Shown piece after piece: positions 5,259 to 63,100 of a DNA stretch of 64,000 bases. The stretch comes from a virus: IMG/VR virus record IMGVR_UViG_3300025508_002497, positions 1 to 64,000 of that record; one strand, given 5' to 3'. Position numbers and translations under genes: made by a program. The notes under the pieces are model-generated. The model saw only the letters and a program-made list of their open reading frames with translations. It was not told the origin of the DNA and did not search any database. The stretch's first letter is position 1. Every line of letters starts with the position of its first letter.

Positions 5259-6940
5259 TAGGAAACCACCACTTCTGTTGATCCAAGACTTGCATTATCT
5301 GATCTGTAGATGAAATATGTTTCGGAGAATCCAGCACTGTTAGTATGTGCAGTTGCACCACCATGAAGTTTACTGAATCCGCCCGCAAATCCACCCACCG
5401 TGAAACTAGCATCTCCATAACTTGATGGATATGCATAATATATGTATTCACCCGCACCTGCGTTAACCGAGAAACTATAACTTCTATTGTTATCTAAGTT
5501 TGAACTCAGTGATGACAAGTCTGGACCAGTTAACCCAGCGTTACTCGAAACACCATAGTAGTTGTTATTTCTGAAAGTTATACTATCGGTTGATGTCGCA
5601 AAACTTCCATCACTACCCGTCGCACCCAGAGTGAATGTTACACTACTATTCTTACTTGCAGGGAATGCTATATTATTAGATGCGACTGATGCAGATCCAC
5701 TCGACAGATCCACAGGGAATCCAGAGTCGGAAGATGCATTGGTTGTTACATCGGCATCAGCAACCGAAATACTGCCGGGAGTTTGGTATGTTGCAGACAA
5801 ACTTCTACCAGTGAGACTGTAGTTGCCAGTGCCAATCAGTGCAGTCGAACTACCAGAGATACTGAACGAGTTGATACCAAAGACAAACTCGGAGTCTAGG
5901 AAAATATCTTGGGCACGAATGTAATCAAAAGTAACTCCACCATCTTCGAGCAAGACTGGGAACTTTCTACCCCCACCACTCACGGTGTTGATATTATCAA
6001 AGTTGATACTATGATCGAGTGAAGTTCCTGTTGCGAATGTGGTATCAAAGAGTCCGTCTCCTGTAGCACCAGTTGCTCCTGTAACACCAGCGGCGCCAGT
6101 TGCTCCTGTAGCACCAGTTGCTCCTGTAACACCAGCGGCGCCAGTTGCTCCTGTAGCACCAGCGGCGCCAGTTGCTCCTGTAGCACCAGCGGCGCCAGTT
6201 GCTCCTGTAGCACCAGTTGCTCCAATAGAACCATCTTCACCAGTAGGACCAGTATTACCAATAGGACCATCTTCACCAGTAGGACCAGTCACACCAGTAG
6301 GACCAGCAACAGTAGAAGCGGCACCAGTAGGACCAGTGTTACCAGTAGGTCCAATAGAACCATCTTCACCAGTAGGACCAGTGTTACCAATAGGACCAGT
6401 CACACCAGTAGGACCATCTTCACCAGTAGGACCAGTCACACCAGTAGGACCAGCAACAGTAGAAGCGGCACCAGTAGGACCAGTGTTACCAGTAGGTCCA
6501 ATAGAACCATCTTCACCAGTAGGACCAGTTACACCAATAGGACCAGTCACACCAGTAGGACCAGTCACACCAGTAGGACCAGCAACAGTAGAAGCGGCAC
6601 CAGTAGGACCAGTTACACCAATAGGTCCAATAGAACCATCTTCACCAGTAGGACCAGTGTTACCAATAGGACCAGTCACACCAGTAGGACCAGTCACACC
6701 TGTGGCACCTGTGGCACCTGTTGAACCAGTGACACCCACATCACCAATAAGGCCTTGTGGACCTTGTGCGCCTACTCCCGATGCTTGTAGAATTTTCACA
6801 ATCGCAGGCAAGTTTTGTTGACCATTAGGGGAAACTCCCCCTCCAACAGAAATTGCATTGGTACTACTAGTGATGACATTGACGCGAGTCGCTGTCTCAT
6901 CAACGTTTGTACTACTTGTGATAACTCTAACTTGGGGCAT
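5258..6940 (-). CDS. Collagen-like virion protein (560 aa) with C-terminal beta-rich domain
   Basis: [12 protein letters not shown] triplet runs at about aa 55-295; C-terminal YYGVS...[11 protein letters not shown]...TNSAG...YFIYRSDN domain resembling the C-terminus of 31713..32801. Confidence 0.85.
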
Positions 6941-7386
6941 TATCTAGTTACCTCAGCACGAACTTCAAAGCGGCCTTGTAATACTCTAGTGACAACCTCG
7001 CCGGCGATTAACTCAATGTCATATAAGTGTCTACCAGAAGGACAGTTTTTCATAGTTTCGGCATCAATGCTAACATAAACTCCACCAGTTGCACCTGTAG
7101 CACCTGTGAGTCCTCCATTGGAGGCGTTTAATAACATACCACCTGATCCCACAACACCATCTGGTTCTGTATAAGATCCTGTTGTACCACCACCCTTAAC
7201 CACACCAGAAGACGTATCTCCTGTTATACCAATCAAAATATCGGTAGCATAAGAAGAACGACGAACCTGCATTCTTCCTTGATATGAGTCTAGATCAATT
7301 GCTTCTTCACTATTAGTTTCATACAAAAAATAGAGAACATAGTTCGCACCTTGATCTGCTAAGATGTTAAATTGTCCAGCAGCCAT
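6940..7386 (-). CDS. Small beta-sandwich virion protein (fibre-attachment/adaptor type seen in T4-like phages)
   Basis: Pattern NI.ADQGA...IDL..Y.GRMQVR...YDIEL...VTRVLQG...V..EVTR; SD AGGAG upstream. Confidence 0.7.
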
Positions 7387-7405
7387 ATACTTCTCCTATT
7401 ATATT

Positions 7406-7414
7406 GTATATATG
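7406..7414 (-). promoter_or_regulatory. Putative gp55-type late promoter variant CATATATAC for fibre module 2
   Basis: Intergenic, 20 nt upstream of the ATG at 7386. The identical 9-mer lies upstream of fibre module 1 (32827..32835). Confidence 0.5.
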
Positions 7415-7417
7415 CTT

Positions 7418-8662
7418 TTAGGATCGAGCCTTTTTCTTCTTCTTGTACGTTTTGGTCTTGATTTTAGGAGGATTAACCGACGCTTTCTTCTGTTGCTTCT
7501 CCCATTCGGCTCTTTGATTCCTGATTTCCTTGACCTTTTCTTCGTAAAAAGGAAGATTACTCTTGATTCTTTCCATTTGATCAGCAGGAGCCTTGTTTTC
7601 CTTGAGGAGTCTTAGAGTTGCTTCGTATCCCTCTTCAAATCTGAACATATAGAAAGCGGTAGCAGATAGTTCGTCCAACGCTCTCCAATGATAGCAGTCC
7701 TCTGATACGAAAAGAATATCTTGGGGAGGAACTTGTAAGTCTACCGCCATCTTCGCATAGATGTATGCTGTTCTTGGACGATTATTCATACGATACAATC
7801 GTGATAGTTCTACCAGAGGCTCAGCACGGATTGGTCTATATTCAAATGACTGTAAGAGATGCTCTGTAACTTCATTGAAAGGTTTGTTTTGAATACCAGC
7901 GATCATCGCTCTTCTGAATAGTGAATAGAAGCACTCCTCTTCCCATCCACCCATCTCTACCCTCTTACCATAAGCCTCAAACGACTTCTCCCACTGCTGC
8001 GAATCAAAGTAAGATTGAGCGAGGTAGAATTGATACCGTTCGTTTGTTGGTTCGTAGTTTGGATCATCTGGATTGGTAAGAGCAGACAACAGAACTTCTG
8101 CGTCTCTACTATACTTTTCTTGTGGTGTGATTCCTACGTTGCGATTGCCCTCGGTTCTGGCGATAACGAAATAGTTACCATTAATTTTATCAACTCTTGT
8201 TTGTTCTTTTGGTTTGGCTGGACAGTGGGCATACTCATGAAGCACTCCCTTATACTCCCAACCAATACCCAACTTGAAGATTTGATTCCTCCACCACATA
8301 AACTCAGGACGACCAAGACGAATTGAATACGAGTCCGCATCCATCTTTGAGGGATACCTAAAATCACCATCGATGTAGTCATCTGCATCAATCATCCATG
8401 CATATTCGGCATCGCTACTCTCTGCGTTTCTTAATGCTTCTGTTCTTGAAGGACCAAAACCTTTCCAGTCAGACTGATGAACAGTGCCAGGAACACCCAA
8501 CTCATCCATTGTCTTCTTGATTAGATCTTGTGTTCCATCTGTAGAACCAGTATCAGTAATATCATATCGATCGACATACTTTGACATCGATCGAAGACAC
8601 TCTTCGATAATATGAGTCTCATCTTTTACGATCATACACAGGGTCACTTTTGGTCGGCTCAT
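7418..8662 (-). CDS. GT2 glycosyltransferase with C-terminal TPR repeats (SunS/SgtA-like architecture)
   Basis: LCMIVKDE...DTGSTDGT...W.GFG.SR..AL...DADD N-terminal domain; helical YLAQSYFD...EPLVELSRLYR TPR-like C-terminus. Confidence 0.88.
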   Translation of the reverse strand: MSRPKVTLCMIVKDETHIIEECLRSMSKYVDRYDITDTGSTDGTQDLIKKTMDELGVPGTVHQSDWKGFGPSRTEALRNAESSDAEYAWMIDADDYIDGDFRYPSKMDADSYSIRLGRPEFMWWRNQIFKLGIGWEYKGVLHEYAHCPAKPKEQTRVDKINGNYFVIARTEGNRNVGITPQEKYSRDAEVLLSALTNPDDPNYEPTNERYQFYLAQSYFDSQQWEKSFEAYGKRVEMGGWEEECFYSLFRRAMIAGIQNKPFNEVTEHLLQSFEYRPIRAEPLVELSRLYRMNNRPRTAYIYAKMAVDLQVPPQDILFVSEDCYHWRALDELSATAFYMFRFEEGYEATLRLLKENKAPADQMERIKSNLPFYEEKVKEIRNQRAEWEKQQKKASVNPPKIKTKTYKKKKKARS

Positions 8663-35882: not shown

Positions 35883-36701
35883 TCATAGATGATAACATAA
35901 GTTCCTACAGATATTAACATTCATATCATAATCATCGGTGGGATCTATTAGTGTCTGAACTTCATTACCTACAAACTGCTGTATTCCATTTTTTCTAGCA
36001 GAGGCAGAAAAAGTTACATACTCCATTTGAACACCGTCCGTGGTGTAATCTAATCCTTTATGAATTTGATCTGTTCTAATCATGTAACACATATGAACTA
36101 GATCAACAGCAAAAGTTCCAATAAGAGTTTTATTCCATATTGGTCTAGACATATTCTTATTTTCTTCTGAACCATCATAGTAACCATTTGAAGAACACCT
36201 CAAATAAAATCCTCTAGGAAAAGCACCATCATTATGCACCATCATAGGCGCAAAAATAGGTTTGTTTTCACGCACACAATACTTTATAGTTTCTGGTGGG
36301 AAAAAATTATCCCCATCACAAACGAAGTAATAGTCACACCCAGTATTTAAGGCATGGTACATACTTGCATTTCTTATTTTCCCGAGTGTACTGAGTCTAA
36401 TCCCACCTTCTGCGTACCACGCCTCTTCTCCACCGGGACCAGCCGAAACACCATCTAACTCATGAAAATATTCTTCAAGAAAAGTTACCGAACGATACTT
36501 TCCAGACTCATCTATTTTTTTACACCAGTCTCTAAGTTTTACGTTGGTGTTATCACTATTGTTATTTGTATGAACATAGATCGACAGATATTCAGGATCA
36601 TAATCAATATTTTCTACGCACTTTAAAAACATGGACAATTTATTTTCCATGTCTCTTACTAGTATTGTAATTTGCACTATTGGCATCAATCCTCTAGACA
36701 T
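35883..36701 (-). CDS. GT-A protein resembling the N-terminal domain of procollagen galactosyltransferase (COLGALT) and PLOD GT-like domains
   Basis: Colinear motifs NNNSDNT..LRDW, YRSV, CDYYFVCDGDN, ENKPIFAPMM, SSNGYY, GTFAVDLVHMCYMI, FSASARKNGIQQFVGN. Confidence 0.75.
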   Translation of the reverse strand: MSRGLMPIVQITILVRDMENKLSMFLKCVENIDYDPEYLSIYVHTNNNSDNTNVKLRDWCKKIDESGKYRSVTFLEEYFHELDGVSAGPGGEEAWYAEGGIRLSTLGKIRNASMYHALNTGCDYYFVCDGDNFFPPETIKYCVRENKPIFAPMMVHNDGAFPRGFYLRCSSNGYYDGSEENKNMSRPIWNKTLIGTFAVDLVHMCYMIRTDQIHKGLDYTTDGVQMEYVTFSASARKNGIQQFVGNEVQTLIDPTDDYDMNVNICRNLCYHL

Positions 36702-40179: not shown

Positions 40180-40695
40180 TTAGGTTGGTATCCACCGTTT
40201 CCAAATACGAAGCAACTCATCTTGTATCTCAGCCAACTGCATCTCTAGATGCTTTGGTTTTCTTGGTTTGTTGATCAGGGGCATCTTACATTCTTTAGGT
40301 TTTCGATTTCCCTTCTTTGAGTTACAAGGCGCACAAGCAGTTGTAAGATTTGTCCAAGAAGAATCACCACCTCTTGATCTAGGCATAACGTGATCAATTG
40401 TTAATGTCTTATTGTTTTTCGATTTCAAACCACAGTATTGGCAAGTCCAGTTATCTCTCTTGAAGATATTTCTTCTTGTGGGTAGATGTGATTGATGTGG
40501 TGTGAGAACATATCGAATCAGTACTAGTGCTGCGGGTAGTGGATATGTTCCCTTTGGTGTTTTAATCTTATAAGTCTTGGAAAAGGAATAAGGTTTTATT
40601 GCCTTTCCAGATTCTAAAAGTGCTACTGCTTTTTTCCAATCGATCACATTTAATACTTCCTCAGAAGCGTTCAAGAGCAAGACTTCTCGATCCAT
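40180..40695 (-). CDS. HNH endonuclease (bacterial HNH_5/McrA-like type)
   Basis: VLLLNAS, RRNIFKRD..TCQYCG, TIDHVMPRSRGG, NL.TAC..CN.KKG. Confidence 0.92.
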   Translation of the reverse strand: MDREVLLLNASEEVLNVIDWKKAVALLESGKAIKPYSFSKTYKIKTPKGTYPLPAALVLIRYVLTPHQSHLPTRRNIFKRDNWTCQYCGLKSKNNKTLTIDHVMPRSRGGDSSWTNLTTACAPCNSKKGNRKPKECKMPLINKPRKPKHLEMQLAEIQDELLRIWKRWIPT

Positions 40696-46411: not shown

Positions 46412-46419
46412 TATTTATA
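46412..46419 (-). promoter_or_regulatory. T4 late promoter TATAAATA upstream of gp22/gp23
   Basis: Exact consensus; overlaps the gp21 stop. Confidence 0.85.
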
Positions 46420-49035: not shown

Positions 49036-49551
49036 TCAATCAAAGGTCCAGTGATCGAACCCGATTGTAACACTAAACTCAGCAACTGCATCGGTAGTGT
49101 CATAAGAAAGATCAATGGTTCCAACTTCGATTGGCCAACAATCAATGAGTTTGATTGTTTTACCAGCGGGAATATCACTACCTAGAGAAGTGTTGTTAGC
49201 AAGAGCGACACTCAAAGGAGCAACAGTCCACTGAGCATAAGCCAAACCTCTTGTGGTATCCTCTAGACCCATGAATGTTTGTGACCATTCGATGAACTTC
49301 TCATGAATAGCATTTTCTTCATCACAAAGAACACTGATAGTCCAATCAGGGAAAGTTCTATCTCCTGCTCTCTTTACTTCTCTTCCCTTGAAAGGTACAG
49401 TGACAGTACCAAGTGAAGCAGAAGGCATAGCAGCGGTTTTGATTAAAAGACTTTCGTCTTGTGTTAATGTAAAGCCGTCACTTGATGTGACTGTATAAAG
49501 ATTTGGTCTGATACCTTGACCAAATTTTCCTTTAAAATCTCCTAGTGCCAT
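49036..49551 (-). CDS. 19: Tail tube protein gp19
   Basis: RPNL, PF.GR..K.AGDRTF.DW, WP..VG.IDLSYD, EF.V. Confidence 0.93.
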   Translation of the reverse strand: MALGDFKGKFGQGIRPNLYTVTSSDGFTLTQDESLLIKTAAMPSASLGTVTVPFKGREVKRAGDRTFPDWTISVLCDEENAIHEKFIEWSQTFMGLEDTTRGLAYAQWTVAPLSVALANNTSLGSDIPAGKTIKLIDCWPIEVGTIDLSYDTTDAVAEFSVTIGFDHWTFD

Positions 49552-49578: not shown

Positions 49579-51408
49579 TCAGCCTTCTGAGAAGAATGAT
49601 CCTGAGTTGTTTGCGACGAAGTTGAGTTTGACGAACTGAACTGACTTGGTGGGCTGTAGGAAGATGTCGCAAACGAACTCACCTCTATCTACGACCGAGC
49701 CTGGGTTGTTTGATTCGTCACAAACAATCCTATAGTTTTCAAGACCTCTCTTGTTTTGAACCTCTCTTAGAACTGGATCGATTTGGTTCACGAAACTACG
49801 TCTAGTGAACGCATCATTTTGTTCAAAGAGAATGAAGTTTGCTGATGTAGCAAAGGACTTCTCTAGGATGTTAAAGAGTCTTCTTACTTGGATTCTATCA
49901 AAGGCACTTGGCTTAGTCTGAAGTGTCTTGTCTCCCCAGAGAACTGTACCAGAGCCAGGGAAGGCTACGACGTTGTTGATTCCAGCAGAGTAGATAAGAT
50001 CTCTCTGTGCCTTGGATGGGTTGAATGCTAGTTTATTGACATTCAAGATGCTACCTCTAGCATAACCACCTGGCGAGAACCAAGCACCGAAGTCGGTTTC
50101 TGTTCTGGCAAGAAGTCCAGCGATGTCACCATTTAGCGGAAGCCATCTGGTGATACCGTTGTAACTATCGCTCTGCTGCTTCCAGTTACCATCCATTGCA
50201 GCGTATGAAGTGTCTCTATTGAGATCATTGTTCCTAGAATCAATGACTGTCTGGAAGGTAACATCTGATAGAGTTGCTTTGTTGGCGAGTGATGCTGTAT
50301 CGGCGAAACCAGAACCAACTGGCTGCGAGATGACTGCCATGCAATCCTTACGAGTAGCAGCGATATCAATGACCTTCCGGTTAAGTGCGTCGTCTGCGTC
50401 TCCTGCGATGAGGATACTCACATCAGCAACATCAGGATCGGCGAAGTAAGTGTCCCATGCGGTTTGCTTATTGGAAGAAGTGACCGCAGTACCATATGCA
50501 CCACCCTGAAGTGTGTAGGTGTATGGATTAACAATACCCTTGCGTGCGTTTGTGGTCGCTTCGTGTGCGTCAAGAGGAACTCTATCGAAGTTGGTCTTGG
50601 TGCTTACGAGGGCTCCGCTTGCGTCCAAGTCAGCAGATCCGACTGTAACATCAACACCTAAAGTAATTCCAATGGCTCCTATGGCGCCGGCGCTATAATC
50701 AGCAGAGGCTCCAGTGAGTCCAGAGAATCCAAAGATACTCTCAAACTCACCGACTCCATCGTCGATCTTGATGTAATCTGAGTTGGCGATTTGATACTTG
50801 TAGTAAAGTGCAGTTCCGTTGTCGTCAACTGCGTTGATGATTGAACTCATTCCCTCGTAAAGTTCTAAGACAGAACCACTAGGACCATAAACACCCTTGC
50901 GATCAATAACGGCGAGTGAAAGTTCATCACCACTAGCACCGAAACGAGCAGCATATGAGGAAGTTGCTGGTCTGAATGTAAATGCGTCAGTGGTTGTTCC
51001 TGCGTCATATGTCATACCAGCAGTTACGACTTGAATTTCAAGAGCGCCGTTAACCTGTGCGCCTTCATCCTTTGATCTGAATGTAAAGAATGTTGGTCCA
51101 CCGGGGTATTCCGCAGTCAAACCAGCAGAACCAGAAGTTGCTCCTGATCCTGCGACGTTTACGACTGTTAGGTTGTTTCCGTACTGTAGGAAGTTATAGC
51201 AGGTCCACCAATCGGAGCCATAACGCTCAACGCTTGGAGTACCAAATGTTTCCTGTAGTTCCTTGACACTACTGATTAAAATACGTTCGTTGACTGGTCC
51301 CTTGTCGAAACGACCGACAAAGGCAGCGGGTGTAGTAGCGACAAGTGATACGATACCCGAGAAGTCTCGTTCGGTAACGTCTACACTGGGACTTAAAGTA
51401 AATGCCAT
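49579..51408 (-). CDS. 18: Tail sheath protein gp18
   Basis: SPSV.V.E.D, F.KGP, WFSPGG..RG, WGDKT, SAFDRI.VRRLF, FEQND.FTR, CDE.NN. Confidence 0.97.
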   Translation of the reverse strand: MAFTLSPSVDVTERDFSGIVSLVATTPAAFVGRFDKGPVNERILISSVKELQETFGTPSVERYGSDWWTCYNFLQYGNNLTVVNVAGSGATSGSAGLTAEYPGGPTFFTFRSKDEGAQVNGALEIQVVTAGMTYDAGTTTDAFTFRPATSSYAARFGASGDELSLAVIDRKGVYGPSGSVLELYEGMSSIINAVDDNGTALYYKYQIANSDYIKIDDGVGEFESIFGFSGLTGASADYSAGAIGAIGITLGVDVTVGSADLDASGALVSTKTNFDRVPLDAHEATTNARKGIVNPYTYTLQGGAYGTAVTSSNKQTAWDTYFADPDVADVSILIAGDADDALNRKVIDIAATRKDCMAVISQPVGSGFADTASLANKATLSDVTFQTVIDSRNNDLNRDTSYAAMDGNWKQQSDSYNGITRWLPLNGDIAGLLARTETDFGAWFSPGGYARGSILNVNKLAFNPSKAQRDLIYSAGINNVVAFPGSGTVLWGDKTLQTKPSAFDRIQVRRLFNILEKSFATSANFILFEQNDAFTRRSFVNQIDPVLREVQNKRGLENYRIVCDESNNPGSVVDRGEFVCDIFLQPTKSVQFVKLNFVANNSGSFFSEG

Positions 51409-51443
51409 TTTCTGTTCTCCTTAGATACGCTGCGTAATCACTT

Positions 51444-51451
51444 TATTTATA
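51444..51451 (-). promoter_or_regulatory. T4 late promoter TATAAATA upstream of gp18
   Basis: Exact consensus; intergenic. Confidence 0.88.
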
Positions 51452-51462
51452 CTTTTACATAT

Positions 51463-53151
51463 TTAGAAAAGACCACTATCATTGGTATTCTGATCAGAAT
51501 ACCATCTATCTTTTCCATCCCAAACGCTGTCTTCTCCACCAGCATCACTAATAAATCCAAAGGGAGACATATCTTCTTCTAATTGTTCTATGTCTTCTTT
51601 GTATATATCTGTTCTAACGTCAACGTCTGTGAGGTTCTTGAAATACTCTTGTCGTGTGAGCCACCCAAACAACACTAAACACATCACCAAATCGTCGTGG
51701 TGTCCATCATCTGCCTCATATGACTGTTTTTTTGCCACAAACGTGGTGAGTTCTCCCACGATTTCTTGATCTTCTACTAGTAGTTTGTCTTCTTCTATAA
51801 GACTCTTCAACACAGAACAGCCTAGTTTCTTGACCACCTGTGATGTCCGAACACCAAACTGAACTGTTCCCTTACCGAAACCACCACTAATGGTCTGTCC
51901 CTTTCTGCCTTGGTGGGAACACATCAACACGTTTTCATACTCAAGATCTGAGTACAAAACGTCTGCTACCTGACCACCGATATCGTTAATCTCAACCAGG
52001 CAGAATGCGTTGTTATACTGCTCTGCTAGTCTCTTAACGACGGTTGGGTAAACCATAGGTGAAATAAGGTTGTTTCTAAAGCGTGCTACAACTTTATATG
52101 GGGGATTTGTTATGTCAATCACACAGAACGCACTGTAGTCCTTTCCCTGACCTCTGGAGGTATCCACAGTGATCACATAGGTATGTCCCTCTACAGGATC
52201 ATCATAAACACAAAGTCCATCTGCGTTTTTGATCTTAGGCTTCACCCAAGCAAGGGAGTGAATCTTGTGTGAGGATATCAAGGTGTTACTGGAGCCGATG
52301 AAGTCACACTCAAACTCTGACTGGAACTGCTGCTCGCTGGTGTTGGCAATGGTTTCATTCATCCATGCCTCATCACGGAGAGGACCGCCTGGATACTTAG
52401 GAACCTGAGACCAATGGACCTCGATCGGAATATATTCATTCTTTCCAGACTCTCCCACCTCCTTGATGGCGTGCTTCCAATAATGATAGAACATGTTCAG
52501 TCCATTTGGAGTGGATACCATAAGCACCTTTGTGTTCTGTCCAGATGTCACGGTGGGATATACAGAACTAAAGAACTCTTCGGCAATATTATTTGGAACG
52601 TGAGCAAATTCGTCAAGGAAGATCATGTTAAACGAACCACCACGAATGGCAGATGATGATGTAGCAGAAGCAAGAACCTTGGATCCATTCTCTAGAATGA
52701 TAGATCCCTTGTTCCATTCCACAATCCCTTGCTGTAGCCATAGGGGTAGATACTCGTATGCAAGTTTAAGACGAGATAGAATCTCGCGGGAGGTAGCCTG
52801 CTTGTTGGCGAGAATACCAACAGTCATTGACTGGTTGAATAAAATGTAGTGGAGAATGTAGGATACAATCGTGGTTGATTTACCGCTCTGTCTCGGTAAT
52901 TTGGCAATCACAAAACGATTATTGTGAACCTTATTGATAATATCTTCTTGATAATCGTAGAGTTCAAATGGAATCAAACCCTCATCTAGAGAGACAACCT
53001 TAACATACTCTTTGATAAAGTAGTTTGGATCTTGGGCACACTTCATGTACTCTTTGACTTGCTTTTTTGTAAAGTTCTGTTCACGCCCCGACTCTTTTAA
53101 GTTGGGGTTTCCCAGATAACCACTTTTCTTATCCGTCATCCTTTGGTTCAT
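51463..53151 (-). CDS. 17: Terminase large subunit gp17
   Basis: YLGNPNLK, PRQSGKST, FLDEFAH, STPNG.N.F, DYSAF, HDDLVM. Confidence 0.98.
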   Translation of the reverse strand: MNQRMTDKKSGYLGNPNLKESGREQNFTKKQVKEYMKCAQDPNYFIKEYVKVVSLDEGLIPFELYDYQEDIINKVHNNRFVIAKLPRQSGKSTTIVSYILHYILFNQSMTVGILANKQATSREILSRLKLAYEYLPLWLQQGIVEWNKGSIILENGSKVLASATSSSAIRGGSFNMIFLDEFAHVPNNIAEEFFSSVYPTVTSGQNTKVLMVSTPNGLNMFYHYWKHAIKEVGESGKNEYIPIEVHWSQVPKYPGGPLRDEAWMNETIANTSEQQFQSEFECDFIGSSNTLISSHKIHSLAWVKPKIKNADGLCVYDDPVEGHTYVITVDTSRGQGKDYSAFCVIDITNPPYKVVARFRNNLISPMVYPTVVKRLAEQYNNAFCLVEINDIGGQVADVLYSDLEYENVLMCSHQGRKGQTISGGFGKGTVQFGVRTSQVVKKLGCSVLKSLIEEDKLLVEDQEIVGELTTFVAKKQSYEADDGHHDDLVMCLVLFGWLTRQEYFKNLTDVDVRTDIYKEDIEQLEEDMSPFGFISDAGGEDSVWDGKDRWYSDQNTNDSGLF

Positions 53152-53599
53152 CCACTAGTTCACTAACGATCTTCTTCGTGCTTCTATTGGCATTAATCAG
53201 GTTCTGTAACTCTGATGTTGATCCAATGAAGATTGAATTGTTAGTTGTTTCATTATTTTCAACTTTGGTGACTTCAACATCCTTGACCTTCTTATGAATG
53301 TCAATAAGATCTTTGTTCACATCTGCAACAGTCTTGATGAGTTGTGCAACGACTTCATATGCCCGAGGATGCTCACCCTCTTCTGCTACGTTCATAATCC
53401 CCTGAATGGCGTCCTTACCGTTGTCGATAAGATCCATTAGGTTCTTTCGTGTAGCAAGATAGTCCTTCTTGAGATCAGGATCCTGAATATCCTTATGATC
53501 GACTTTGATCTCAGTTGGTTTTTTCTTTACTATCTCTTTCTTTTCTTTTTCTTCAAAATCCACGCCTAACGCCTTTGCTAGATTTTTGTTGGGATCCAT
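53129..53599 (-). CDS. 16: Terminase small subunit gp16
   Basis: DY...R.NL, HPRAYEV, NN.IFIGSTSELQ. Confidence 0.93.
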   Translation of the reverse strand: MDPNKNLAKALGVDFEEKEKKEIVKKKPTEIKVDHKDIQDPDLKKDYLATRKNLMDLIDNGKDAIQGIMNVAEEGEHPRAYEVVAQLIKTVADVNKDLIDIHKKVKDVEVTKVENNETTNNSIFIGSTSELQNLINANRSTKKIVSELVDEPKDDG

Positions 53600-53607
53600 A
53601 ATAATTC

Positions 53608-54432
53608 CTATCCATAAGTGGGACCAATGTAGTTCCCGTAAGTATCTATCGCTCCAGTTACGCCGTAGTTTCCTAGTTCATAGTTATACTCATATGTGTC
53701 GAAGGTAGAACCTGAAGTATATCCTGAGATACCACCAGAAACACCTGTCTCGAAGAACTCCATAGCACCAGACTTTCCTGTGATATAGTTCCAACTGCGA
53801 ACATTGGTATCACTAATGAGTTTACCTGTTTTCTCTGGTCCGTAGATATATGTTTTTGCTGTGAAGTCGAATGTTAATAGAATATTTCTACGAGTATCAA
53901 AATCACCATCGTAGTCTTCTGCCAAAGTTGTGTCATTAAGAACAATAGGAATATCTACCTTCTTAAATAAATCGGTGAAGTTTACTGTGATGGTAAAATC
54001 TGGGGAGAACATTGGAAGAATCTGTTCCATAATCTGGAATCCATCATCCATATTTCTAACCATAGCATACAAAGAAAATGTTATATTATATGGCACTTCT
54101 GAATATGAAAATGTAGTATTTCCATTTGTGTCTGTGGCAGTGCAAGTTCGATTTAATCTATTCTTTGCTCTAGTTGGATCATATGATATAGCAGTAATCT
54201 CAAAGGACATTCGAGGTAATGTTATTTCTACTGTGGTTTGATTTTCATTGATACTACTAGGCTGATCTAGTCTCATCAAAAACTTTTCTGATGGACCATA
54301 AGCAAGAGGAACTCTAATACGATCGATTTGTGTTCCTTCGTTGTTTACACGGCGAATAACAATATTGTCGAATAGACTACCAAATCCAACAACCAGTTTT
54401 CTTACCGCAGCGTTATAATAAGTGCTAAACAT
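53608..54432 (-). CDS. 15: Tail sheath stabiliser/terminator gp15
   Basis: FGSLF.NI, VPLAYGP..KF, LPRMSFE, QI.EQILP.F.P, F.AKTYIYGP. Confidence 0.94.
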   Translation of the reverse strand: MFSTYYNAAVRKLVVGFGSLFDNIVIRRVNNEGTQIDRIRVPLAYGPSEKFLMRLDQPSSINENQTTVEITLPRMSFEITAISYDPTRAKNRLNRTCTATDTNGNTTFSYSEVPYNITFSLYAMVRNMDDGFQIMEQILPMFSPDFTITVNFTDLFKKVDIPIVLNDTTLAEDYDGDFDTRRNILLTFDFTAKTYIYGPEKTGKLISDTNVRSWNYITGKSGAMEFFETGVSGGISGYTSGSTFDTYEYNYELGNYGVTGAIDTYGNYIGPTYG

Positions 54433-55349
54433 CAGTAGTTACCCTCCGAGAATGGATCGGTTTCTGAGAAGTCTAACACACCTTGTTTCTCTACACCAAA
54501 TGTATCGGCATCTCCATCTGGAGTATCTGTTACGACATTTTCTGGTACGACAAGATTTGTTAATGTGCTTCCTGTTAGATAGTATTCTGTACCCGACTTT
54601 TCACCTTGAATACTTTGCGTAGCACCGACAACGAATGGAGTTTTACTTATACTAGACACAGTTAACGTGCTTGTATCAAGTGACCAACCAACAATAGTTC
54701 CTGTTGATGTGGCTTGTCCTAGTGTTGCTCCTGTGATTCCAGCAGCCTGGAAAACTGTTTCACCCAAGTAGAATCCAGATCCTTCGGTTACTGCGGTGCT
54801 TACGGTAAACTCTGTGGCATATTCCTTCGTGTTTGTCATCTCGTCTGGACCACAAACACCAGTATCGAACTTCTCTAGTGAGTATGTGAAAAGTTCTGCT
54901 TGAAGTAAATAAGTTTGATTCTTACCTAACTGATAAAATGGATTTTCGTGTTCAACGAAGTTGATTTCAAACAAATAGTTACCAAGAGGGAAGTAAATCA
55001 AATCACCTTCCCGTGGTCTTGATAGTGGCTCTAGGTTTCCAACCTCGTCCATAAACCTTCTTCTAGAAACAACCATTTCAACTTTATCTTTAATCTCCAG
55101 TCCATACTTTGCTAGAATATCACCTTCACCTTCAAAGCCATCAACGCTCTGTAGATACATTTCTATTTCATAAGTCTTATCAAACTGACTAAGAACATCT
55201 TCACCAAATAGTCTGTCCTTCTTCACATACTCTCGGGGAAGATATAGAACATCCATACCCATCGTTTTGATTGCTTCGATGGTTAGGTCTTCCATTAGAT
55301 TTTGTTCAGTGGAAGTGCTTTTAAAGTTGAAGTATGGATTTGTTGCCAT
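54432..55349 (-). CDS. 14: Neck protein gp14
   Basis: NPYF, EQ.L.EDL..E.IK..G, YLPR, RPREGDLIYFP, FEI.FVEHE.PFYQLGK, DFSE.DPF. Confidence 0.95.
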   Translation of the reverse strand: MATNPYFNFKSTSTEQNLMEDLTIEAIKTMGMDVLYLPREYVKKDRLFGEDVLSQFDKTYEIEMYLQSVDGFEGEGDILAKYGLEIKDKVEMVVSRRRFMDEVGNLEPLSRPREGDLIYFPLGNYLFEINFVEHENPFYQLGKNQTYLLQAELFTYSLEKFDTGVCGPDEMTNTKEYATEFTVSTAVTEGSGFYLGETVFQAAGITGATLGQATSTGTIVGWSLDTSTLTVSSISKTPFVVGATQSIQGEKSGTEYYLTGSTLTNLVVPENVVTDTPDGDADTFGVEKQGVLDFSETDPFSEGNY

Positions 55350-55352
55350 TTA

Positions 55353-56159
55353 TTACCCTGTCATGAAGTCGATAGGAAGTTCGTATTGTAATCTGATCTC
55401 TTCTTCAAGACGTTCGACCTCTTGCTCTGCTTGCTGGTATATCTCTCCACCCTTGAGACTGACTCCGCCAGGTAACTGAATACCATCATACTTGAGCATG
55501 TTCATACCCCACTGCTTCTTCAACAAGGCAGTAAAGTATTTCTTCACCATTCGATCATTGAAAATCTCAGTGAAGGTGTTTGGGTTCAGAGCGGCATACG
55601 CTTCAACTACAATATAGTCTCCAACAACCGCATCCGTAGACCAGTCCATATCGATGTGTAGTCTATTTGTAACCTTACTGAAACGTATAGCCTTATCTGG
55701 ATTGAAGAAGTCATTGATCAGACTATTGTAACGTTTAAAGATATCATAAGAAGCAAGAGGTTCAGAACCTCCACCAAAGGCGTTTCCTGTGTTGATACCA
55801 AATACGTCGTTCAATGCCCACTGATAACGAACATCAAACATGTTTGATGAAGAAGATTCCATGCGGAAGATTCTAACCACAGAAACAATATCAGATCCAT
55901 CAGGTCCATTTCCAGTAGGACCATCAACGGGTGGTAAAGACGTAGTTGAGATATATTCGTTATCGATGTCAGTCTGTGTTATCTGATGTTTAAAGTAACA
56001 TCGTTCAACACCATCAAAGTGTCGTTCGGTAAAATAATCCAACGCTTCGTCTAGTCGATCTTCTGCCTGCTGGTAATCTACATTGATTTCAACAACAGGC
56101 GCACCGAGTTTACGCATGGCATAATCAATCAACTGACTTCTGGATGCGGGTGATGCCAT
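55353..56159 (-). CDS. 13: Neck protein gp13
   Basis: R.LGAPVVEINV, HFDG, K.QWG.N..KY.G.QLPGGV.L.G. Confidence 0.95.
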   Translation of the reverse strand: MASPASRSQLIDYAMRKLGAPVVEINVDYQQAEDRLDEALDYFTERHFDGVERCYFKHQITQTDIDNEYISTTSLPPVDGPTGNGPDGSDIVSVVRIFRMESSSSNMFDVRYQWALNDVFGINTGNAFGGGSEPLASYDIFKRYNSLINDFFNPDKAIRFSKVTNRLHIDMDWSTDAVVGDYIVVEAYAALNPNTFTEIFNDRMVKKYFTALLKKQWGMNMLKYDGIQLPGGVSLKGGEIYQQAEQEVERLEEEIRLQYELPIDFMTG

Positions 56160-60128: not shown

Positions 60129-63100
60129 TTAGATAAATCTCATTTCGTAAACATTGTCTCTTTGTGTAATTAAAATCTTCACATCAGTATTTATTCGTCT
60201 AAAATCTCGTCCGCCGGCGGGAAGTCTTGGAATCCCGGGATTGTTGGTAGTAAACGGATTATTCCACTCCGAAGGAACACGGGGATCCTTGATTGCTGGT
60301 CCCCACACCTCTGCTGCACGATCCTTACAAACTCCATTTCCTCCACCTGAACTAGCGGTTGAGTTTGAACCCAAACCATTTCCTCCAGTAGCAGGAACTC
60401 CTATTGGTGAGGATGCTGGTTGAGTTCCTTGACAACTCGATCCAACTTGATCCGATCCAAAACCTTTGGGTGCTTTTGTTCTGTCGTGAATAAATCGGCA
60501 ACTACTAAAGACGTATTGTTCACATGGACCATCGGGACAAGTACTAAATGTTGGCGGGGGAAGACAGTTACAACCCTCACATGCTGTGAGTTCTGATATA
60601 TCATCTAGAGTTCCTGCTGTTGCTTTCGTTGTATTGTTTTTAAACGGATCACATGGTCTACCGTCCTGTTCGCAAATGGTCTGCTTATCGCATTGTCCAC
60701 ATACACTCTCTGCTTCACGAACTGGATCTACACAAGCGGCAGGTTCAGTTGTATTACCATCTACAATATTACACCAATCAGTAATATCGTTCAAATTGTT
60801 TGAACAGGCGGATGGGAACCCGCCACCGTCACCACATTGCTCTGTCTTGTGATAGAAAACACCAAGTTCTTCTAGTTTTACTCTATCCTCCATAGGACAT
60901 GGTTTCGCCTTACATCCGCCAGGGTTCTTGCAACAATCTTGCCATCTATAGGGAAGTTCAAGACCTTGTGGAGTGACATAAGGTCTTCCACTTTCTCTTA
61001 CCTTATGATCCGTTGGATCAAAAACATCGTTAGGATATTGACTTGGTTTATATGGACCACTTCTACCGTCCCAAGGTCGGTTCCAGCCTGGAATGTCACC
61101 ATCAAAATCACAGTTACTGCAAGTTATTTTAATATCATCCACTATACAGTCTTCACACGAATTCGCATTACTAGTACTGAATACATCGTTGTTAGGACAG
61201 AACAGAGTCCAATACATGCAACAACATGCACCAATGAACTTAGTTTTAGGACAACCAGACATAAAGCAAGGATCAGTACTGAACTTCCCCTTACATCCTG
61301 TATTAGTGTTTGGGTTATAGGCTGAGTTGTTTCTTGATACGATGAAAGATCCATCATAGCAGTTACCACCAAAGAAACAGCAAGAACCAGTTAACCAGTC
61401 GCTGCGTGGATCTATTCCACCGCCGCCACCTCCGCCGCCGACGCCACCAAAGCCTCCGAATCCTGCGAAGTCAAAACCATCACTATCTCTCTCTGGTTTG
61501 ATACCATCATCATCATCATCATCATCATCACAACCGTCCGGACCTGGCGGTTGTCCAGTTTCTTCACAACAATCCACGGGACCATTACAACCACACCCCG
61601 GTGGATCATCACAACAATCATCTCCATCACAACAGTCATTTCCTGCATCCGGATCACAACAAGGACTTCGATTTGGATGTCCAGGCGGACAGTCACAACA
61701 ATCATCTTCTACACAGTCACAAGGACATTCTCCTGCTTGATAACAACTTACACTTTCGCATTGTGACTCATCACCCATGAACAGTCCACCAACAGCGGAA
61801 CATTGTTGTGGTGTTATATCATCAATACACTGATCCACACAAAGGCAACATGCTCCTCGATATTCTTTCTGAGGACAACAGATATCACAGTCTTCTACAT
61901 TTGGTGTCCACTCGCCACTGAATACATCGCATTGAACCTTTGTTGTGATTCCGAAACATTCACCAGAGAACTCGTTGCAGCAAGTACCAAACTCAAAAGG
62001 CTGACAAGCGTCAAGACCATCACAGATATCACAAGGAGTCTGTGGAGGTATTACGCTACTTTCTGGAACAAAGTAACCATTAATGAGATTACAAGAAAGT
62101 GCAGTTGCTGGTGTCAAACATATAGGTCTTGCTACTGTGTTTAATACTACACCTTCGCAATCTGCACAGTCGTCCTTGATTCCGCCAGGACATATAACCG
62201 AAGTAATATCATCAGGAAGATTTCCATATATTGTTAGACACGCACCATCAACTGAACAGTCTTGACAACATTTTTTACTGTTACCTCCCGTAAAACAGAA
62301 ATCTGGCTCACCAGCGTTGGGACTACTAGGGGGTAGGATGGGGGATCCACGGTCTGCACAAACCACACCGGGAATATAACCACCATCCAAAAAATTGCAC
62401 TGATCACGTTGACAACTGTCACTGATATTAACACAAACATGTCCTCCGTCTGGAATGCTTGCGTCGTACAAACAACAAGATCCGAGTTCTTGCGTACAAA
62501 CACCACAGTCTCCATCGGGACAACAGGACAGAGGATTTGCTTCACTACCACATTCACCAAAACAAGCCCATGACTGACATACTGGATTCTGATCGGGACA
62601 GTCGATGGTGCCGCCGTCAATCTGCTGACAATCGGGATCGTCTGGATTATCTACACAATAGCAGTTATCTTTTACTGGCCCATCACTATCATCACAAACA
62701 TATTCTATTGTAGTTTCTCCTACACCAGTGCAACATGCACCCTGTTCGCCCGCACCACAAACATCATCTGTTCTATTTGCACATGCAACATTTAGTTCAA
62801 ATGATCCTCCATCACCGAGACGATCACAATATTCTTCACTTACAAAATCAACGCAGTTCAAGTTATTACAACAAGAACCCAAGTTACTAGTCTTGAATAC
62901 ATCAACATCCCACCCATAACCAGTCATTGTTGCATACCAAGTTTCACCATTATCAATAGATGCTAAGTTTACAATATCAATACCACTAGTGAAAGTTGGT
63001 TTTCCTGCGAAGAAAACATTATCAGGGAATGCTATATTTTCTGGTCCGCCTTCTACGACTATGGTGATGTTTTTCATTTCAGCATAATCAAGACCGTCAT

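Follow-up and report, generated by a model that had tools for sequence, protein, structure and literature searches.

The window analysed here, a 64,000-nucleotide stretch (positions 1 to 64,000 of IMG/VR record IMGVR_UViG_3300025508_002497), comes from a 97-kb contig fragment of an uncultured phage and carries a T4-like late gene module together with a gene for a putative glycosyltransferase, GT2-TPR, that lies beside genes for collagen-like fibres. Several structural proteins of the module contain Gly-x-Thr (G-x-T) motifs, and a sequence-only reading of the window took these for acceptor sites of the phage's own O-glycosyltransferase, a virion-wide sequon through which the whole particle surface could be glycosylated. 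Our data favor a narrower reading. Most G-x-T motifs in gp13, gp14, gp18 and gp23 would be incidental to the Gly- and Thr-rich loops and insertions that evolve fast on the surface of T4-like structural proteins, with or without a glycosyltransferase, and would not constitute a dedicated virion-wide sequon. The cognate acceptors of GT2-TPR would most likely be the Thr-rich collagen-like fibres, together with short collagen-like tracts in a 148-amino acid (aa) protein and at the N-termini of giant fibre proteins. Only a few sites in collagen register, G-x-[ST]-G-x-[ST]-G, would qualify as plausible secondary acceptors, namely those in the gp15 tail, gp18 (aa 227-235), gp14 (aa 204-209) and a baseplate wedge protein (aa 48-56). 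We give this reading, in which the core motifs are mostly by-products and the acceptors of the enzyme lie elsewhere, about an even chance of being right.

The G-x-T excess in core virion proteins is modest

All G-x-T motifs listed in the sequence-only reading are present where it placed them, mostly in variable loops, insertions and tails. They start at aa 89, 96, 104, 131, 137, 230 and 247 of gp18, with one more at aa 418; at aa 237, 241, 257 and 270 in the tail of gp15, with one more at aa 104; at aa 196, 204, 207, 242 and 260 of gp14, all in its C-terminal part; at aa 80 of gp13 (DGPTG); and at aa 144, 196, 278 and 293 of gp23. The motif had also been described as sparse in gp17, gp20, gp21, gp44 and gp46, and the counts agree (2, 1, 1, 1 and 1, respectively). 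Per-protein shuffles placed these counts at each protein's own low expectation, because the Gly and Thr content of these proteins is lower. From composition alone, about 0.76 G-x-T per 100 residues would be expected across the contig in gp13, gp14, gp15, gp18 and gp23, the five proteins that are pooled throughout, and 0.25-0.33 in the non-structural classes. Therefore, most of the contrast between structural and non-structural proteins, about three quarters of it, is compositional.

Comparison with composition-shuffled controls, which the sequence-only reading had proposed, supported it in part. When the five proteins were pooled, 23 G-x-T were observed and 14.7 expected (p about 0.02), and this excess persisted under local shuffles confined to 10-100 residues. 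Taken singly, none of the five reached significance in the composition shuffles (8 observed versus 4.5 expected in gp18, p 0.067; 5 versus 2.6 in gp15; 5 versus 3.2 in gp14; 1 versus 0.9 in gp13; 4 versus 3.5 in gp23), and the contrast with other proteins mostly reflects Gly/Thr content. The excess is specific to the i/i+2 spacing, with none for G-T, G-xx-T or T-x-G. Among the i/i+2 residue pairs with enough expectation in the window, G-x-T ranked 6 of 254, which is within what multiple testing allows. The extended motif G-x-T-(G/A) was found 7 times versus 2.3 expected in the five window proteins (3.0-fold; p 0.015, local shuffle p 0.04). The observation is thus real but modest. Another extended pattern, G-x-[ST]-G, reached 12 versus 2.4 expected in the window and was dropped as evidence because it is equally strong in cyanophages that lack the enzyme (P-RSM4, 8 versus 2.1; S-WAM1, 7 versus 2.0).

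Depletion was seen as well. Orthologues of the tube protein gp19 at less than 60% identity (window gp19, 49036-49551; lineages L001-L079) contain 18 G-x-T versus 75.9 expected, and portal and gp13 orthologues are likewise under expectation.

GT2-TPR is encoded beside Thr-rich collagens

The presumed enzyme contains a GT2 domain (PF00535) at aa 8-100 (E 3.8e-8), which is also found in 26 of 26 relatives, and an acidic DxD-type motif, D92-A-D94-D95, that is invariant in 26 sequences. Its own TPR signal is sub-threshold (ANAPC3, E 0.016); TPR families are matched by its relatives of 56-89% identity (ANAPC3 in 21, TPR_2 in 17 and TPR_14 in 12 of the 26). Against the PDB, only GmaR was matched, through its glycosyltransferase domain (E 3e-7; about 100 residues, aa 3-99). 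About 3000 metagenomic relatives belong to this family, and none was found in cultured T4-like phages.

The gene order GT2-TPR, 148-aa protein, Thr-rich collagen recurs as a cassette in two distant lineages, with the same order and orientation (window 6940-8662; L089:2383-6344; L090:2185-7285). The enzymes of these lineages are 45-50% identical and the small proteins, of 148 or 154 aa, 47-48% identical, and in a third lineage the enzyme is present at 53% identity. The lineages that share the cassette have sheath proteins with only about 40% identity. The middle gene of the cassette encodes a small protein in which the motif is significant by itself (2.0 G-x-T expected, p 0.0015; the count is given in Table 1), and this protein holds a short collagen-like run. 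In the window collagens, Thr occupies about 50-64% of the Y positions. Similar short tracts are present in proteins of 362 and 387 aa and N-terminally in the giant fibre proteins, and they account for much of the G-x-T excess of the fibre class, which stands at 107 versus 77 after these tracts are masked. Core virion proteins differ from the fibres in this respect: no long uninterrupted Gly-x-y runs of the PF01391 type were found in them, the three runs of gp18 and the single run of gp15 being only three triplets each, and when the capsid, sheath and neck proteins were scanned against PHROG, they matched their own virion families and none that is collagen-like.

The proposal that the phage encodes its own O-glycosyltransferase retains a candidate, the GT2-TPR gene beside the Thr-rich collagens; the further step, in which core virion proteins across the particle would be its acceptors, is not supported. 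A pairing of enzyme and collagen like that of SgtA and BclA3 in Clostridioides difficile is credible and well supported by the genomic context.

Several observations concern the fibre proteins themselves. Three giant fibre-like proteins of 1518, 1944 and 387 aa (L086:129-4685, L086:4711-10545 and L086:10567-11730) start, at aa 11-46, with short tracts of collagen-like G-x-T. The first of these genes starts inside the window at 60129, and a window open reading frame of 1097 aa corresponds to the C-terminal part of its 1518-aa product. Additionally, a 492-aa protein without a family match (L087:14725-16203; contig 92725-94203, plus strand) contains 18 G-x-T versus 7.6 expected and a short collagen-like run at aa 105-122.

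Phages without the cassette show much of the same excess

Seven complete phages served as cassette-less controls: T4, S-WAM1, phiN3, X1, ACP17, P-RSM4 and pelagiphage Mosig. No GT2 gene or collagen was found in these seven, and the GT2-TPR protein used as a query gave no match in five of them, whereas the same search was positive in cassette lineages. The ratio of observed to expected G-x-T in the five proteins ranged from 0.48 to 1.80 in the seven phages and was 1.57 in the window. ACP17, without a GT2 gene, has 22 versus 12.2 in the five proteins, and its sheath, with 8 G-x-T in 163 aa, is denser than the window gp18. For gp18 plus gp23, the pooled ratio of eleven cultured phages was 1.23, with values of 1.3-1.5 in RHph_Y68, X1, GR28A and P-RSM4 (RHph_Y68, 1.51) and 1.74 in ACP17, compared with 1.54 in the window. 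S-WAM1 gp14 (5 versus 2.8 expected) and T4 gp23 (4 versus 3.1 expected) have the same counts as their window counterparts. Because of this overlap, gp18, gp23, gp14 and gp13 of the window cannot be told apart from those of enzyme-less phages. The excess had been expected to be missing where the enzyme is missing. For these four proteins it is not, since the values of ACP17, S-WAM1, P-RSM4 and RHph_Y68 overlap with those of the window or lie above them; the expectation holds for gp15 only. Glycosylation of the whole particle surface is thus not established by the motif, given that the four proteins lie within the enzyme-less range.

Several results nevertheless weigh against our reading and in favor of a virion-wide sequon, in which exposed G-x-T sites, especially G-x-T-(G/A), would have been selected as GT2-TPR acceptors and the whole particle would be O-glycosylated. 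In four related uncultured lineages (L044, L049, L071 and L073), two of which are proven cassette carriers, G-x-T ranks first among about 250 spaced pairs; in cultured phages its rank is 2 (ACP17), 30, 40, 77, 204 and 209. The excess withstands 10-aa local shuffles in related lineages as in the window, and it is limited to one spacing. Moreover, G-x-T-(G/A) reaches 34 versus 9.7 (3.5-fold) in four cassette-bearing genomes and 31 versus 18.9 (1.6-fold) in nine cassette-less phages, the cassette-bearing values being higher in gp14, gp15, gp18 and gp23 alike; further relatives, assigned to neither group, have 48 versus 15.7. Selection for acceptor sites would be expected to leave such a pattern. 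To take the seven-phage comparison as a full refutation would be too strong, as the ranking of spaced pairs and the G-x-T-(G/A) test showed a residual difference. In addition, of 109 alignment columns with G-x-T, 84 belong to one lineage only, which fits repeated gain and is what independent gains would produce; the sites lie in loops and low-confidence segments of the AlphaFold2 (AF2) models; depletion is seen in orthologues of gp19, the buried tube protein; and a single Thr or Ser in a short peptide is enough for SgtA.

On balance we consider a virion-wide sequon unlikely. The G-x-T-(G/A) ranges of cassette-bearing and cassette-less phages overlap, with ACP17, S-WAM1 and P-RSM4 reaching 2.4-2.8-fold without any GT2 gene, and no window protein is significant individually. 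In a portal tree, the cassette-bearing lineages and a clade of cyanophages and pelagiphages form an unresolved polytomy; therefore, the contrast between phage groups draws on very few independent lineages and is confounded by ancestry. The gp18 sites are freely lost among relatives of 66-87% identity, and no TATAAATA late-promoter motif precedes the enzyme gene.

The opposite possibility is that the core motifs have no function, that the enzyme acts on non-virion targets (such as host surface molecules or a non-structural target) and that the excess reflects Gly-rich turns followed by beta-branched residues. The rank of G-x-T in the window, the general excess of about 1.2-fold in gp18 and gp23 of the eleven cultured phages and the enrichment of G-x-[ST]-G in the enzyme-less P-RSM4 and S-WAM1 would all be accounted for in this way. 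We nonetheless think that this explanation is also unlikely to be correct, as in deep lineages the GT2-TPR gene is fixed next to those of the 148-aa protein and of a collagen rich in Thr, enzyme relatives of known function modify proteins, and the gp15 tail has a clade-confined register with conserved Ser/Thr.

Sheath sites cluster in a variable region and are not conserved

The G-x-T motifs of gp18 are clustered, with seven within 163 aa (scan statistic p 0.001-0.005). In the AF2 model, which has a mean predicted local distance difference test (pLDDT) score of 74 and matches the structure of T4 gp18, the sites map to loops or to the edges of strands in the variable region, with pLDDT falling below 50 at aa 100-103 and 232-238. 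The segment at aa 226-249 (50662-50733) is hypervariable: relatives with 80-98% identity elsewhere differ here in both length and sequence. Its flanks, GEFES.FG and G.DVTV, are strictly conserved. Among 17 relatives of 66-98% identity, the eight sites were kept in 16, 6, 6, 12, 2, 3, 11 and 13, which is not higher than background conservation (Gly 0.86, Thr 0.73). The relative at 66% identity (L019) retains one G-x-T in its entire sheath. The sites in gp23 and gp14 are likewise conserved only at background level among close relatives.

The gp15 tail is conserved within the uncultured clade

A different picture emerged for the C-terminal tail of gp15, the only region of a core protein that passes both the conservation test and the comparison with enzyme-less phages. 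Alignment of 28 sequences from the uncultured clade shows no change at G257 or G260 and next to none at G237, G254, Y268 and G270. A Ser or Thr is found at position 256 in 21 of them, at position 259 in 25 and at position 272 in every one. Distant lineages carry the element as G-[IV]-[TS]-G-P-S-G-A-S-S, and the tail sites are kept in 7-8 of 8 close relatives. Matches to cultured phages end at aa 211; the tails of those phages hold 0-1 G-x-T, and this tail type is absent from the cultured T4-like phages examined. For gp15 alone, the cassette-bearing phages have 21 G-x-T versus 8.9 expected and the cassette-less phages 8 versus 13.3. The tail thus carries a conserved element of three triplets in collagen register that occurs only where the cassette does. 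Its pLDDT is below 50 in the AF2 model, and the tail is probably flexible. In pelagiphage Mosig, gp15 has an unrelated 300-aa extension in place of this tail.

A collagen-register tag recurs in the sheath and the baseplate wedge

Outside the collagens, proteins of the contig contain five copies of the pattern G.[TS]G.[ST]GA[ST], versus 0.009 expected. Three copies lie in short collagen-like tracts, and two are isolated, one at aa 227-235 of gp18 and the other at aa 48-56 of the baseplate wedge protein. Eighteen identical bases (CTGGAGCCTCTGCTGATT) are shared by window positions 50697-50714 in gp18 and by L086:17971-17988 in the wedge gene (contig 77971-77988, outside the window); they encode the peptide G-A-S-A-D within GFSGLTGASADYS of the sheath and GFTGSSGASADSS of the wedge. 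The wedge tag is kept in orthologues down to 74% identity, whereas the sheath tag is found only in relatives of at least 91% identity. The sheath copy therefore looks like a recent short-patch copy into the hypervariable loop.

These copies raise the possibility of a portable mini-collagen tag, G-x-[ST]-G-x-[ST]-G-A-S, that would mark virion proteins for O-glycosylation by GT2-TPR and would be exposed on flexible loops or tails of proteins other than the collagens, clade-wide in the gp15 C-terminal tail, in the baseplate wedge and, as a recent copy, in the sheath loop. We put this forward tentatively and regard it as rather improbable; if true, glycans would be found on the neck, sheath and baseplate alongside the collagen fibres. 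It is very unlikely that the collagen-register tags on gp15, gp18 and the wedge are instead docking or nucleation sites for the collagen-like fibres: the gp15 tail does keep Gly invariant at i, i+3 and i+6, more conserved than its hydroxyl residues, the wedge tag is conserved to 74% identity and no fibritin-like gene was recognised beside the neck genes in PHROG scans, but three triplets are generally too short for a stable triple helix, T4 gp15 is a hexamer ring, and the low pLDDT of the tail leaves the idea without support from structural models.

Genomic setting of the late module and the cassette

Every gene of the window lies on the minus strand (Table 1). PHROG scans recognised a T4-like late module that comprises gp23, gp22, gp21, gp20, gp19, gp18, gp17, gp16, gp15, gp14 and gp13, and among sheath proteins of cultured phages, the nearest share only 35-40% identity with gp18. 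Besides the three collagen-like genes and the GT2 gene, the window holds a sugar-metabolism island. The terminase genes gp17 and gp16, which fall within the interval that encodes the sheath and neck proteins, served as non-virion controls.

Table 1. Positions of the cassette genes, late genes and motif-bearing regions in the window.
Feature	Position	Strand	Basis and G-x-T content
gp18 tail sheath, 609 aa	49579..51408	-	phrog_23, E 1.6e-102; 8 G-x-T
gp18 variable outer region, aa 89-249	50662..51144	-	7 of the 8 gp18 G-x-T inside
gp18 loop tag GFSGLTGAS, aa 227-235, three Gly-x-y triplets	50704..50730	-	pattern match
gp17 large terminase (non-virion control in interval)	51463..53151	-	2 G-x-T vs 2.0 expected
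gp16 small terminase (control)	53129..53599	-	1 G-x-T vs 0.3 expected
gp15 tail sheath stabilizer, 274 aa	53608..54432	-	phrog_227 over aa 2-211 only; 5 G-x-T
gp15 C-terminal tail, aa 212-274, beyond PHROG core	53611..53799	-	alignment of 28 sequences; 4 G-x-T
gp14 neck protein, 305 aa	54432..55349	-	phrog_460 over aa 1-202; 5 G-x-T
gp13 neck protein, 268 aa	55353..56159	-	PHROG scan; single G-x-T
gp23 major capsid protein, 480 aa	43941..45383	-	PHROG scan; 4 G-x-T
GT2-TPR glycosyltransferase, 414 aa, presumed enzyme	7418..8662	-	PF00535, GmaR match, TPR families in relatives
148-aa protein, middle cassette gene	6940..7386	-	orthologues 47-48% identical, same position, two distant lineages; 7 G-x-T
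Collagen-like fibre, 560 aa	5258..6940	-	PF01391; Thr at 49 of 76 Y positions; 54 G-x-T
Collagen-like fibre, 1502 aa	750..5258	-	collagen match, Y-position count; 109 G-x-T
Collagen-like fibre, 1277 aa	27880..31713	-	collagen match, Y-position count; 98 G-x-T

The T4-type late promoter motif TATAAATA is present at 51444-51451 and 46412-46419, 36 bases upstream of the gp18 start and the gp22 start, respectively; it was sought before the GT2-TPR, 148-aa and collagen genes and none was found. Between the gene for the late sigma factor gp55 and the helicase region there is an HNH endonuclease gene (40180-40695). Away from the main sugar island, a 272-aa protein (35883-36701) matches the Anp1 mannosyltransferase family (E 1.9e-9), and its gene adjoins those of a PALP-like enzyme and a methylase-like protein.

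Discussion

To our knowledge, virion glycosylation has been demonstrated experimentally in very few phages. Freeman et al. (2023; cited in PMC11256854) reportedly found by mass spectrometry that glycosyltransferases encoded by mycobacteriophage Che8 and its relatives modify the phages' own virion subunits. The acceptors lie on terminal extensions, which resembles what we consider for the gp15 tail. These phages differ in being siphoviruses of Actinobacteria, in their capsid and tail-tube targets and in their transferase families, and neither a collagen nor a G-x-T register is known to be involved. Moreover, glycosylation was shown by mass spectrometry there, whereas in the present phage we infer any glycosylation at all from what was observed, namely the motif counts, the architecture of the enzyme, the conservation of the cassette and the comparison of phages.

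Bacterial systems offer parallels to the cassette. The exosporium protein BclA of Bacillus anthracis is a GPT-repeat collagen with O-glycans on the Y-position Thr of a surface fibre. It is a bacterial spore protein and as a parallel concerns the collagens, not the core virion proteins. In C. difficile, SgtA (358 aa) consists of a GT-A domain and TPR, and its gene lies directly upstream of that for the GPT-rich collagen-like BclA3 (PMC7157674). SgtA places O-linked N-acetylglucosamine (O-GlcNAc) on Thr or Ser of G-x-T triplet peptides in vitro, a single acceptor being sufficient (PMC7157674), and a G-x-T acceptor context therefore has precedent. GT2-TPR is likened to SgtA by layout: an N-terminal GT-A/GT2 domain is followed by TPR, and the neighbouring collagen is rich in GPT and GAT triplets. 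However, SgtA is bacterial and shorter than the 414-aa phage enzyme, whose gene is separated from the collagen by that of the 148-aa protein, and it is known to act only on peptides with collagen repeats; folded sheath or capsid proteins are not among its known substrates. GmaR of Listeria monocytogenes, a flagellin O-GlcNAc transferase (PMC9638930), also has a glycosyltransferase domain followed by TPR, and it does modify exposed residues of a folded, polymerising structural protein. Nevertheless, GmaR is 637 aa long with an antirepressor domain, has no known G-x-T context, and its match to the phage enzyme is short.

The extension from fibres to core proteins rests on a motif excess of 1.5- to 3-fold, which occurs more weakly without the enzyme. 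The places of interest for secondary glycosylation or fibre docking are thus the gp15 tail and a few collagen-register tags, not the whole particle. If T4-like marine phages do decorate their sheath, neck or capsid through Gly-x-Thr, this would give a new view of how such particles adsorb and of their stickiness in marine gels, and it would also bear on grazing on or recognition of the particle and on the unexplained sugar islands in phage genomes.

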